64,000 bases of DNA from Aigarchaeota archaeon (GCA_025058515.1 JANXDW010000026.1:18332-82331); one strand, 5' to 3'. Counted from the stretch's first letter, positions 24,495 to 55,417 are shown. Program-made: numbers and translations. Notes: generated by a model from the letters alone, not told the origin.

Positions 24495-24914
24495 CTATTT
24501 CACCAATCTATCTAGAATATTTGATAGAGACTCAACAGCGGTGAGCCCGATGCTCTTAAACTTCTTCAACTCATTCCAGTAAGTTAAGTCTACCTTCTCT
24601 ACTAAACCTTCTAGAAACTTTTTTAGATAGATAGTTTTCTTACTCCCTTCTTCATCGATATCTAGTAGGAGGACTACATGATCAACACCCATCGACCTTA
24701 GCTTCTGAACGAGATCTCTAGGAGATCTATATATGATGATCTCTCCTTTAACCCCTATTCCTCTCAGAGCTTCAAAATCTCTCTTTCCTTCAACTATTAT
24801 TGGAGAACCATCTTCAGATTCTTCAATAAGTTTTCTAATCCATTCTTTAAGTTCTTCATACTCTTTAAGATTTCTACATCTCTTCTTTATTCTCGATCCA
24901 CCAATTAAAAATAT
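24495..24914 (-). CDS. Small Toprim-domain protein (COG1658-like); start codon uncertain
   Basis: Toprim Glu box IIVEGKRDFEAL and DxD box LLLDIDEEG. The ORF is open from a stop at 24921-24923 and has no in-frame ATG/GTG/TTG upstream of the E box. Confidence 0.5.
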   Translation of the reverse strand: MFLIGGSRIKKRCRNLKEYEELKEWIRKLIEESEDGSPIIVEGKRDFEALRGIGVKGEIIIYRSPRDLVQKLRSMGVDHVVLLLDIDEEGSKKTIYLKKFLEGLVEKVDLTYWNELKKFKSIGLTAVESLSNILDRLVK

Positions 24915-25153
24915 CTTATACTAATCTTTATTTTTAGCTTTCTCAAATTCTATGAAGGATTTAAGGGAGAATATAATCTAGAGGTTTAACATCTAGGAAT
25001 AAGTGAGTATTGAAATGAGTGTTTTTATCATTTTTTGACTTCTTATTCAAGTGGAGAAGAGCTTTAGTACATCTATTGGTTATACCAGTGTATTACAAAA
25101 TTATTTTTACATCTACATTTTCTAGTAACCCTAGAGTTGGAGGTGAGAGATAA

Positions 25154-25300
25154 GTGAAAGTAGTTACAGTTCATCTCCCTGAACCTTACATAGAGGCTAT
25201 AGATGAACTTGTAAAGAAGAGGATATACCCCAATAGAGCTGAGGCCATAAGAATGGCCGTAAGAGATTTTATCCAATCGGAGGCAAACATAAGTGAATGA
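25154..25300 (+). CDS. Ribbon-helix-helix (CopG/Arc/MetJ-like) small DNA-binding protein, 48 aa
   Basis: Not in the ORF track. GTG start preceded by AGGTGAGAG. Sequence VKVVTVHLPEPYIEAIDELVKKRIYPNRAEAIRMAVRDFIQ gives a beta-strand plus two helices. It overlaps the ftsZ start by 8 nt. Confidence 0.45.
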   Translation: MKVVTVHLPEPYIEAIDELVKKRIYPNRAEAIRMAVRDFIQSEANISE

Positions 25301-26351
25301 AGAAATCTTGATTGATGCAGAGATTTTGAATGATGTTAGAATTACGGTGATCGGCGTAGGAGGAGCTGGATGTAATACCGTCAACCGACTGACGAACCCC
25401 AACCTTAACAAGATAAAATTAATAGCAGCAAATACAGATGCGCAACATCTAGAACTCATAAAGACTAAGAATAAGATAGTTTTAGGGAAGTCTGTTACAA
25501 AGTTTAGAGGTGCTGGAGGAGACCCGGCGAAAGGCAGAGAAGCTGCTGAAGAATCTATAGAAGAGATTAGAGAAGCTATAGAAGACTCTGATATAGTTTT
25601 CATCTCAGCTGGGCTAGGTGGGGGAACAGGTACTGGTGCTGCACCTCTAATAGCTGAAGTCGCAAAAGAAGTTGGAGCAGTAGCAATAGGTTTCGTCACC
25701 TTACCATTCAAGTTTGAGGGAAGTATTAGGAAGAGGATAGCTTTACAAGGTCTAGAAGAGATGAAGAGAAGCTGCCATACAGTTATCGCAATAGATAATA
25801 ATAAATTATTAGAACTATATCCTCAATATAGTTTAAAGAGCGCTTTAGCATTAGCAGATGAAGTAATAAGTAACATGATATTGAGTATAATGGAGTCTAT
25901 TGTTAAGCCTAGCTTAATAAACATAGATTACGCAGATTTTCGAACGATTATGATGAGAGGGAATCTCGCAGCCCTCGGGATAGGGGTCTCATCTACTCCA
26001 AATAGAGCTGAAGAAGCAGCATTCAATGCTTTAGAATGCCCATTACTAGATGTTTCATACGATGGTCTAACAGGAGCGATAATACATGTTACAGGTGGAG
26101 AAGATATGAAGATCAGTGAAGCTGCTAGACCTGCAGAAATAGTCTCAGAACTTATGGATAAAGAAGCTCTAATAATCTGGGGTGCTAGAATAGATAGTTC
26201 TTTCGATTCAAAACTCCAAGTATCTTTAATATTGACAGGTGTAAAAGATAAAGAAGTTGATATTTCTTTATCTCAGAATAAAACGTCTGAGATATTATAT
26301 GAAGAAGAATTAGAGAAGATCATGGAAGAACTAGGAGTTAAGGCATTATAA
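25293..26351 (+). CDS. ftsZ: Cell division GTPase FtsZ
   Basis: Tubulin/FtsZ signature GGGTGTGAAP and N-terminal ITVIGVGGAGCNTVNRL. 352 aa with a GTG start. Confidence 0.85.
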   Translation: MNEEILIDAEILNDVRITVIGVGGAGCNTVNRLTNPNLNKIKLIAANTDAQHLELIKTKNKIVLGKSVTKFRGAGGDPAKGREAAEESIEEIREAIEDSDIVFISAGLGGGTGTGAAPLIAEVAKEVGAVAIGFVTLPFKFEGSIRKRIALQGLEEMKRSCHTVIAIDNNKLLELYPQYSLKSALALADEVISNMILSIMESIVKPSLINIDYADFRTIMMRGNLAALGIGVSSTPNRAEEAAFNALECPLLDVSYDGLTGAIIHVTGGEDMKISEAARPAEIVSELMDKEALIIWGARIDSSFDSKLQVSLILTGVKDKEVDISLSQNKTSEILYEEELEKIMEELGVKAL

Positions 26352-40399: not shown

Positions 40400-40520
40400 T
40401 GCGGGGGGTGGGATTTGAACCCACGAACCCCTACGGGATTCCCCACTTTAATTCAGGGGTTCTCATCTCTTATTTGAGAACCTGAACCCTGCGCCGTTGA
40501 CCAGGCTTGGCTACCCCCGC
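40400..40520 (-). tRNA. tRNA-Leu (anticodon CAG) with two predicted introns
   Basis: Minus-strand sequence GCGGGGG-TA-GCCAAGCCTGGTCAACGGC-G-CAGGG-TTCAGG[about 21-nt insert]CCCTG-[about 15-nt insert]-TCCCGTAGGGGTTC-GTGGGTTCAAATCCCAC-CCCCCGC-A. The acceptor and T arms are perfect, the D arm is Leu-type, the variable arm is long, and the discriminator is A. Confidence 0.8.
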
Positions 40521-54703: not shown

Positions 54704-55417
54704 ATGTTTTGTTCAAGCTACTATTGTGGAAGTAGGATGAGGATGCCATTCTTTATTGAGATGTCCCAGAAGAAGATACTGATAATTGGTGGAGGATATA
54801 AGGGGTTGAAAAGAGTTGAAAAGTATCTTAAGACAGGCGCAGAGATAATAGTATATAGTAAAAGTTTTGATGAGAAATTGACTGAGTTAGCAGATGGAAA
54901 TCAAGTAAAATTGGTGAAAGGGGATGTTGAAGATTATGAGAGATTAGAAGAGTTGATAGAAGAATCTGATATCGTTATGGTTGCGCTTGAGAAAAAAGAT
55001 TACAATGAAAAGATTAAGAAGATTACTAAAAAGTATCGTAGACTTCTCAACTTAGCTAATGATGCAGAAGAGACAGATCTAGTAGTACCTATTGACTCCA
55101 CCGTAGGTCCATTAAGGATAGCTATTACAACTGAAGGGAAGAGTAGTATAATTGCAAGAGAAGCTTTGCACAAGATAGTAAAATTATTAGAAGAAGATAT
55201 AGAGTTGAGAGAATTTACAGAGTTAATGTACTCTGTAAAGAAAATAGTTAAAAAGACTCATTTTGATTCTAAGAAGAAGTTAGAGATATATTACAAAATT
55301 TATAACAATAGTTTATTGAGAGAAGCTATCAAGATTGGAGATTATGGAAAAGCTAGAGAGATTGTTTTCAATATATTAAGAGAAGAAGGTTTAAGAGTTG
55401 AAGAAGGCGAATTATGA
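54704..55417 (+). CDS. sirC: Precorrin-2 dehydrogenase / sirohydrochlorin ferrochelatase (SirC/Met8-like Rossmann domain)
   Basis: KKILIIGGGYKGLKRVEKYLKTGAEIIVYS. The true start is probably the internal Met near 54737-54743. Confidence 0.65.
   Translation: MFCSSYYCGSRMRMPFFIEMSQKKILIIGGGYKGLKRVEKYLKTGAEIIVYSKSFDEKLTELADGNQVKLVKGDVEDYERLEELIEESDIVMVALEKKDYNEKIKKITKKYRRLLNLANDAEETDLVVPIDSTVGPLRIAITTEGKSSIIAREALHKIVKLLEEDIELREFTELMYSVKKIVKKTHFDSKKKLEIYYKIYNNSLLREAIKIGDYGKAREIVFNILREEGLRVEEGEL

Follow-up and report, generated by a model that had tools for sequence, protein, structure and literature searches.

Two ribbon-helix-helix (RHH) proteins, CdrS of haloarchaea and aCcr1 of Sulfolobales, are the only archaeal cell-cycle regulators of this kind known, and both come from lineages with a single division machinery. 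CdrS is a 61-aa RHH protein whose gene precedes ftsZ2 by 3 nt (PMC8406309). The cdrS gene is co-transcribed with ftsZ2, and CdrS is needed for normal division (PMC7439475, PMC8406309). In vivo, CdrS occupies a symmetric motif located 41-110 nt upstream of the transcription starts of its target genes, which include ftsZ1 (PMC8406309). The cdrS-ftsZ2 pair was reported for all major archaeal groups except DPANN (Darnell 2020, PMC7439475), and it was also reported that ftsZ2, not ftsZ1, often lies beside a gene called 'parD' (Pende 2021, PMC8178401), which is the name that automated pipelines give to such RHH proteins. For aCcr1, the box bound by the protein has been defined experimentally; its seed is GTATTA (AGTATTA), and a likeness between this box and the core of the CdrS motif was noted (PMC9976892, PMC9976878).

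The cdrS-ftsZ arrangement itself is therefore already published (Darnell 2020, Liao 2021, Pende 2021), with the gene generically annotated and the present lineage unstudied. Caldarchaeales have been reported to possess FtsZ2 together with CdvBC (PMC9723716). Here I describe the counterpart gene in Aigarchaeota, which are thus reported to have both FtsZ2 and CdvBC. What is added to the published picture is an ftsZ Shine-Dalgarno (SD) sequence embedded in the RHH gene, a GTATTA-type palindrome linking the CdrS-like and aCcr1-like systems, and a set of viral homologues.

The RHH gene and its conservation

The window, that is, the whole stretch of 64,000 nucleotides of Aigarchaeota archaeon DNA that was analysed, carries the following features around the RHH gene.

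24495..24893, minus strand: small Toprim-domain gene, a divergent neighbour outside the operon (tblastn, Pfam Toprim)
25139..25146, plus strand: SD sequence of the RHH gene, GGAGGTGA, 10 nt 5' of its GTG
25154..25300, plus strand: cdrS-like gene for a 48-aa RHH protein (ORF, RHH_1 match, CdrS as best NCBIfam match)
25279..25283, plus strand: SD sequence of ftsZ, GGAGG, inside RHH codons 42-44 and 9 nt before the ftsZ GTG
25293..26351, plus strand: ftsZ, encoding 352 aa from a GTG start, its first 8 nt (25293-25300) shared with the RHH gene

The product of the RHH ORF is MKVVTVHLPEPYIEAIDELVKKRIYPNRAEAIRMAVRDFIQSEANISE, read from a GTG start to a TGA stop at 25298-25300. There is no earlier start, because an in-frame TAA lies at 25151-25153. 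In an alignment of 12 upstream regions, the GGAGGTG of the SD sequence is invariant. A previous sequence-only reading of this DNA had claimed a 48-aa GTG-initiated ORF at 25154-25300, a good ribosome-binding site in front of it, and an end 8 nt inside ftsZ; the coordinates, the SD sequence 10 nt before the GTG, and the TGA lying beyond the ftsZ GTG at 25293 all agree with this. The same reading had called the ORF unannotated, which is not the case. An identical NCBI protein exists under the name 'ribbon-helix-helix domain-containing protein [Aigarchaeota archaeon]'. GenBank has a call for this gene in GCA_026413845.1, contig JAOAKF010000003.1, to which the stretch maps.

Is this short ORF conserved as a protein? 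A scan with one genome per species found relatives encoded in 465 species-representative stretches. The best 80 of these 465 loci were analysed; they come from Caldarchaeales/Aigarchaeota, other Nitrososphaeria, and Bathyarchaeia. In a set of 26 homologues, which are 69-100% identical, 23 of the 48 columns are invariant, including the beta-strand VTVHL and the stretch YPNRAEAIR. The C-terminal residues 41-48 are variable and are dictated in part by the overlap with ftsZ. Over the 80 loci, pN is 0.151 and pS is 0.815 with synonymous sites saturated (pN/pS 0.19), and the entropy by codon position is 0.56/0.21/1.45, the third position having 7 times the value of the second. The protein is kept while the GC content of the ORF ranges from 29% to 63% in the same 80 loci, and the remaining frames are laden with stop codons. 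The low pN/pS and the retention of the protein across such a wide GC range indicate selection at the protein level. Thus, conservation of the ORF and not just of the nucleotides, which the sequence-only reading had named as a check, was found across 80 species loci.

The short length of the ORF and its GTG start would also suit an untranslated sequence, a conserved 5' leader of ftsZ or a regulatory RNA that stays open by chance. However, this reading does not account for a pN/pS of 0.19 at saturated synonymous sites over a GC range of 29%-63%, for the stops in the other frames, for the conserved start position, SD sequence, and length, or for the confident prediction of an RHH fold (see below). 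No Rfam match was found at the ORF, and no conserved RNA structure was found at the RHH-ftsZ junction (MFE z-score +0.88, no covariation). The chance that the ORF is untranslated is therefore considered negligible, the non-coding reading being effectively refuted by the substitution pattern. The RHH ORF is a genuine, strongly conserved gene, and its conservation, as judged from the aligned homologues, is far beyond chance.

Family and fold of the RHH protein

Pfam RHH_1 (PF01402) matches residues 4-40 of the 48-aa protein (E 1.7e-10, 40.9 bits against a cutoff of 20.5). AlphaFold2, supplied with 26 homologues, predicted an extended N-terminus followed by helices at residues 10-21 and 28-47, with a mean pLDDT of 86.8; the model is of a single chain, and the strand of an RHH protein pairs only in the dimer. 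The sequence-only reading had described a beta-strand followed by two helices and had suggested structure prediction. The Pfam match above cutoff and the predicted strand-helix-helix layout are both in line with that description.

By Foldseek, the best matches of the model are RHH antitoxins (ParD/PrpA) and the RHH domains of NikR (TM 0.78-0.85, rmsd 1.0-1.5 A); the E-values are weak (>=0.3) owing to the very small size of the domain. Sequence comparison gives NikR RHH domains as the closest solved structures (1q5v and 2bj1, E 2.4e-6), and YPNRAEAIR of the 48-aa protein aligns with YNNRSEAIR of the NikR RHH domain in 1q5v. NikR was considered as an identity for the protein and rejected, as the protein ends at residue 48 and lacks the C-terminal metal-binding (ACT-like) domain.

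The best of 18,950 NCBIfam models for the protein is that of CdrS, NF058555 (E 1.2e-11, profile positions 1-44 of 61). The score of 44.4 bits lies below the curated cutoff of 100 for this model, which was built for Halobacteria, and by the NCBI criterion the protein is not an equivalog of haloarchaeal CdrS. NikR models rank after CdrS, cover about the first 45 positions, and score far under their cutoffs. The aCcr1 model NF053762 gives a weak match below its cutoff (20.8 bits against 60, E 2.6e-4), and Pfam VapB_antitoxin and the NCBIfam ParD-family antitoxin model TIGR02606 also match weakly. An exhaustive profile search collected 2,182 clusters at E <= 0.001. When ten representatives of this wider family were drawn from the top 150, CdrS was the best match for all ten, at 34-50 bits, and none of them reached the CdrS cutoff. 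The window protein is therefore a member of a large archaeal family, in which the characterised CdrS is a divergent haloarchaeal branch. The tie to CdrS rests on the profile match, synteny, and the literature.

Is the protein, then, the antitoxin of a type II toxin-antitoxin module (ParD/VapB/CopG-like) that came to lie beside ftsZ by accident? JGI labels many of the homologues 'antitoxin ParD1/3/4', ParD/PrpA antitoxins head the Foldseek matches at TM 0.78-0.85, the VapB_antitoxin and TIGR02606 matches point the same way, and the neighbour of ftsZ2 was called 'parD' by Pende et al. (PMC8178401). On the other hand, no toxin gene is adjacent; ftsZ lies downstream (in 79 of the 80 loci) and the divergent Toprim gene upstream. 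Its 48 residues make up the RHH core alone, without the C-terminal toxin-binding tail of ParD and VapB, and its vertical conservation together with ftsZ across classes is unlike the behaviour of mobile toxin-antitoxin modules. Moreover, the best curated family is CdrS and not an antitoxin model. An antitoxin is therefore considered very improbable.

The divergent Toprim gene deserves a short description. A 133-aa homologue in another locus (L004) covers 24893..24504 in a tblastn alignment with 63% identity, and a Toprim homologue is found at the same position in 43 of the 80 loci. The Toprim frame of 132 codons scores 25.1 bits against a cutoff of 23.1 and passes in its long form only. Upstream of 24692 the frame lacks ATG, GTG, and TTG alike, and for this reason the gene call is limited to a 65-aa fragment; the true start may be a rare codon, or it may have been lost. 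Elsewhere in the window, an Rfam scan gave one tRNA match and nothing else. The match, at 40400-40520 on the minus strand, stretches the 71 positions of the model over 121 nt, and ARAGORN called no tRNA at this place; an archaeal tRNA with an intron is the probable explanation.

Pairing with ftsZ and the embedded SD sequence

The identity of the downstream gene is clear from Pfam Tubulin (E 4.6e-49) and FtsZ_C (E 3.7e-26) and from TIGR00065 (363 bits against a cutoff of 295). The best PDB match of this FtsZ is M. jannaschii FtsZ1, and no FtsZ2 structure is among the matches listed for comparison. An ftsZ start upstream of 25293, which would turn the region into FtsZ coding sequence and which the sequence-only reading had named as the result that would overturn it, is excluded by an in-frame TAA at 25290-25292.

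Among the best 80 of the 465 loci, ftsZ lies directly 3' of the RHH gene on the same strand in 79. The lone exception (L065) is a second, longer paralogue, and the same genome has an ftsZ-linked copy (L028). The identical 8-nt overlap was found in 52 of the 80 loci; in Bathyarchaeia, the stop codon of the RHH gene abuts the ATG of ftsZ. Since the flanking genes vary between lineages, it is the RHH-ftsZ pair itself that is retained.

The SD sequence of ftsZ falls within the RHH reading frame and has left a trace in codon usage. All 51 loci of the 48-aa class have GAG at codon 43 and none has GAA, against 139 GAG to 90 GAA in the rest of the ORF. In these loci, the third base of codon 42 is always G, its amino acid being E, S, T, or V, and 50 of the 51 ftsZ genes start with GTG. 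The codon bias and the fixed start together reveal a constraint at the nucleotide level, namely that the ribosome-binding site of ftsZ lies inside the RHH coding sequence. FtsZ translation can probably be started directly at this site, besides by ribosomes that terminate 8 nt downstream. A hairpin over the ftsZ SD sequence was considered as a coupling mechanism and rejected; when 15 loci were folded to a consensus, 4 pairs formed, none of them backed by a compensatory change.

The overlap leaves no room for a promoter or a terminator between the two genes, and from this geometry I infer that the RHH gene is co-transcribed with ftsZ. The sequence-only reading had proposed a dedicated small DNA-binding protein accompanying ftsZ, possibly an autoregulator or a division-associated factor. 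This proposal is supported by the occurrence of the pair in 79 of 80 loci, the 8-nt overlap in 52, the invariant SD sequence, and CdrS as the best match, with the regulation itself being presumptive.

The same tight translational linkage, with nearly equal SD/GTG contexts that suggest a fixed stoichiometry, could also be explained by a protein that acts mainly by contact with FtsZ, as a stoichiometric assembly modulator or a chaperone made in a fixed ratio. Residues 41-48, which vary and are partly set by the overlap, may be counted in favour of such a role, and DNA binding is presumed here from homology and the upstream sequence. However, the invariant VTVHL and NRAEAIR are residues typical of DNA-binding RHH domains and align with the RHH domain of NikR, and the characterised relative CdrS occupies defined sites on DNA in vivo (PMC8406309). 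The operon's own promoter has a conserved palindrome, and paralogues and viral homologues exist without ftsZ (both described below). Direct action on FtsZ as the main function thus seems unlikely, less so than an antitoxin.

Promoter and candidate operator

In an alignment of 12 relatives, two conserved non-coding blocks stand amid an otherwise diverged upstream sequence. The features of this region are as follows.

25027..25039, no strand assigned: the other conserved block, ATCATTTTTTGAC, with almost no variation among the 12 aligned sequences
25079..25096, no strand assigned: imperfect palindrome GTTATAC-CAGT-GTATTAC, candidate operator, with the core ATAC-N4-GTATTAC at 25082-25096
25101..25109, plus strand: TATA-like box of the RHH-ftsZ promoter, TTATTTTTA, with a T-W-T core at fixed spacing

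The columns of the palindrome are invariant in the 12-sequence alignment, and the palindrome lies directly upstream of BRE/TATA. When 56 loci were anchored on it, the consensus aTAC-nnnc-GTATTACcAA-nnn-tTwTa was obtained, in which the T-W-T core is invariant at +14..+16 from the GTATTA seed. I take this core to be an archaeal TATA box, in keeping with what is generally established for archaeal promoters, and transcription would then start near 25130. On the plus strand, GTATTAY was found between -85 and -50 in 49 loci, where the background density of the same loci would predict 0.34.

Within the 64-kb window, the full palindrome occurs once, which is no more than expected by chance for the window alone, and no regulon is visible there. 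The heptamer GTATTAC occurs three times against 8.4 expected. One of these copies, at 25372-25378 on the minus strand, falls within the part of ftsZ that encodes the conserved GCNTV segment, 280 nt 3' of the copy in the promoter, and recurs at the same position in seven other loci. It is probably due to coding constraint and could be a second site. The ATCATTTTTTGAC block lies 115-127 nt 5' of the RHH start and is present in 26 of the 80 loci, 23 of which carry CATTTWTTG at -120..-135. The block may be a second promoter, may bind some other factor, or may serve as a signal for the divergent gene.

The palindrome contains the seed recognised by aCcr1. In the Sulfolobales system, the seed GTATTA belongs to the ccr-2 box, TGTATTAT; in the present locus, it lies within the conserved element TGTATTAC upstream of the operon. 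Furthermore, the beta-strand KVVTVHL goes with the palindrome, while the Bathyarchaeia have KLITLYL and different tandem repeats. In the Bathyarchaeia loci (L068-L093), the region from about -110 to -50 mostly holds two or three tandem repeats of about 11 nt resembling ACATATTTAAA and no palindrome. This pattern fits a protein and an operator that changed together, few independent changes being represented among these sequences, and kinship among the loci inflates all of these upstream-element counts. The palindrome is the best candidate for a site of the RHH protein, which presumably binds it.

It is also possible, though I regard it as rather unlikely, that the protein is a transcription factor whose site is not this palindrome; the palindrome would then belong to the core promoter or serve a different regulator, and the targets of the RHH protein would all lie at other loci, as those of CdrS do in H. 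volcanii. The 18 sites found by ChIP-seq of H. volcanii CdrS include ftsZ1, and the cdrS-ftsZ2 promoter is absent from them (Table 1, PMC8406309). Autoregulation is therefore without precedent in the characterised system. In Hbt. salinarum, the cdrS-ftsZ2 promoter is bound by a different RHH protein, CdrL (PMC7439475), and the present element abuts BRE/TATA. Against this, CdrL is reported to be restricted to Halobacteria (PMC7439475), an inverted repeat is the kind of site that RHH dimers read, the GTATTA seed of aCcr1 is present (PMC9976892, PMC9976878), and the element covaries with the beta-strand between Caldarchaeales and Bathyarchaeia.

Viral homologues and paralogues

Homologues of the 48-aa protein were also found on IMG/VR viral contigs and on a contig of a 'Thermofilaceae' MAG (L095 3396-3644, L094 6001-6255, L096-L098, and L011 641-805). 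The viral homologues are 51-68% identical to the window protein and keep the signature HLPExY...YPNRAEAIR. One of them lies 1.8 kb upstream of a gene for the terminase large subunit (phrog_2, E 2e-39), and another lies between two DNA methyltransferase genes. On the 'Thermofilaceae' MAG contig, a 78%-identical copy is part of a tightly packed cluster without ftsZ. A parallel exists in Sulfolobales, whose division is manipulated by viral homologues of aCcr1.

Two paralogues have an RHH core followed by a Cys/His-rich, zinc-finger-like C-terminal tail. They are 98 aa (L065 3001-3297, containing …FRCFLCNKIFLKPADLARHLSWC…) and 139 aa (P0190) in length, and the former is not beside ftsZ. Their architecture recalls that of CdrL, which was reported as restricted to Halobacteria.

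Proposed function

On balance, the gene probably encodes a CdrS-like RHH regulator that forms a two-gene operon with ftsZ and is a candidate for autoregulation through the palindrome at its own promoter. One promoter, with the TATA-like box at 25101-25109, would give a single mRNA for the RHH gene and ftsZ, on which ribosomes would load at two near-identical GGAGG-N9/10-GTG sites. As the regulator and the division GTPase would be made from one mRNA, their amounts would be linked. By analogy with CdrS and other RHH proteins, the product would most likely dimerise, and its two-stranded beta-sheet, formed by the invariant VTVHL, would enter the major groove at short repeated sites. A dimer on ATAC-N4-GTATTAC beside BRE/TATA may then autoregulate the operon, with either a negative or a positive sign, and tune the supply of FtsZ. 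Similar sites elsewhere would probably be bound as well, and other division genes might possibly be tuned in this way. A role as a transcription factor for division genes is suggested by the analogy with CdrS and aCcr1. No division gene besides ftsZ (cdv, sepF) was found among the called genes about 25 kb to either side (about 1-48,000), and a look-up of the gene at 54704-55417 gave no record.

A wider proposal can be made, which is speculative and which I hold to be unlikely rather than likely. The ftsZ-linked RHH clade of Caldarchaeales, Nitrososphaeria, and Bathyarchaeia may bridge the euryarchaeal CdrS and the crenarchaeal aCcr1, which would then be one ancestral regulator. This would have had a GTATTA-type box at its own promoter and would have kept autoregulation of the ftsZ operon in lineages with both machineries, and viruses would have captured it to manipulate the division of the host. 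The near-invariant protein, the fixed ribosome-binding site of ftsZ, and the palindrome bear on the dosage of FtsZ and on a possible common descent of CdrS and aCcr1. For annotation, genes of this kind should be named CdrS-like regulators, not 'ParD antitoxin' or generic RHH proteins.

Comparison with known systems

NikR shares the beta-strand and the start of the helix, NR(S/A)EAIR; the window protein has neither the nickel domain nor a link to nickel uptake. ParD/CopG antitoxins share the fold (TM about 0.8) and the name given by pipelines, whereas the window gene has no toxin partner, its product has no extension, and it has been inherited vertically with ftsZ, unlike such antitoxins.

aCcr1 is likewise a small RHH protein, and it controls division genes, a role that is presumptive for the window protein. 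Its homologues occur on viral contigs, as do those of the window protein. However, aCcr1 is not linked to ftsZ, which is absent from Sulfolobales, whereas the window gene is ftsZ-linked. The element of the window lies upstream of the TATA box, unlike in the aCcr1 system. The window protein is clearly more similar to CdrS than to aCcr1, for which it scores 20.8 bits against a cutoff of 60.

CdrS (Hbt. salinarum VNG0194H and its H. volcanii counterpart) is likewise an RHH protein with one domain and about 50-60 aa, and its gene lies directly 5' of ftsZ in the same orientation. The window protein has 48 aa against 61 for CdrS, and its 44 bits compare with a cutoff of 100 bits that is specific for haloarchaea. 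Its host belongs to the Thermoproteota/TACK lineage, which is reported to have CdvBC and FtsZ, unlike the hosts of CdrS. No gene for a CdrL partner lies upstream in the window, where the divergent Toprim gene is found instead. The spacing to ftsZ is minimal in both systems, 3 nt for CdrS of H. volcanii and an 8-nt overlap in the window; the overlap and the embedding of the ftsZ SD sequence in coding sequence set the window genes apart from the CdrS system. The window has a palindrome at its own promoter, whereas CdrS has not been reported on its own promoter. The centre of this candidate operator lies about 40-45 nt 5' of the putative transcription start, which corresponds to the proximal end of the -41..-110 range of CdrS sites.
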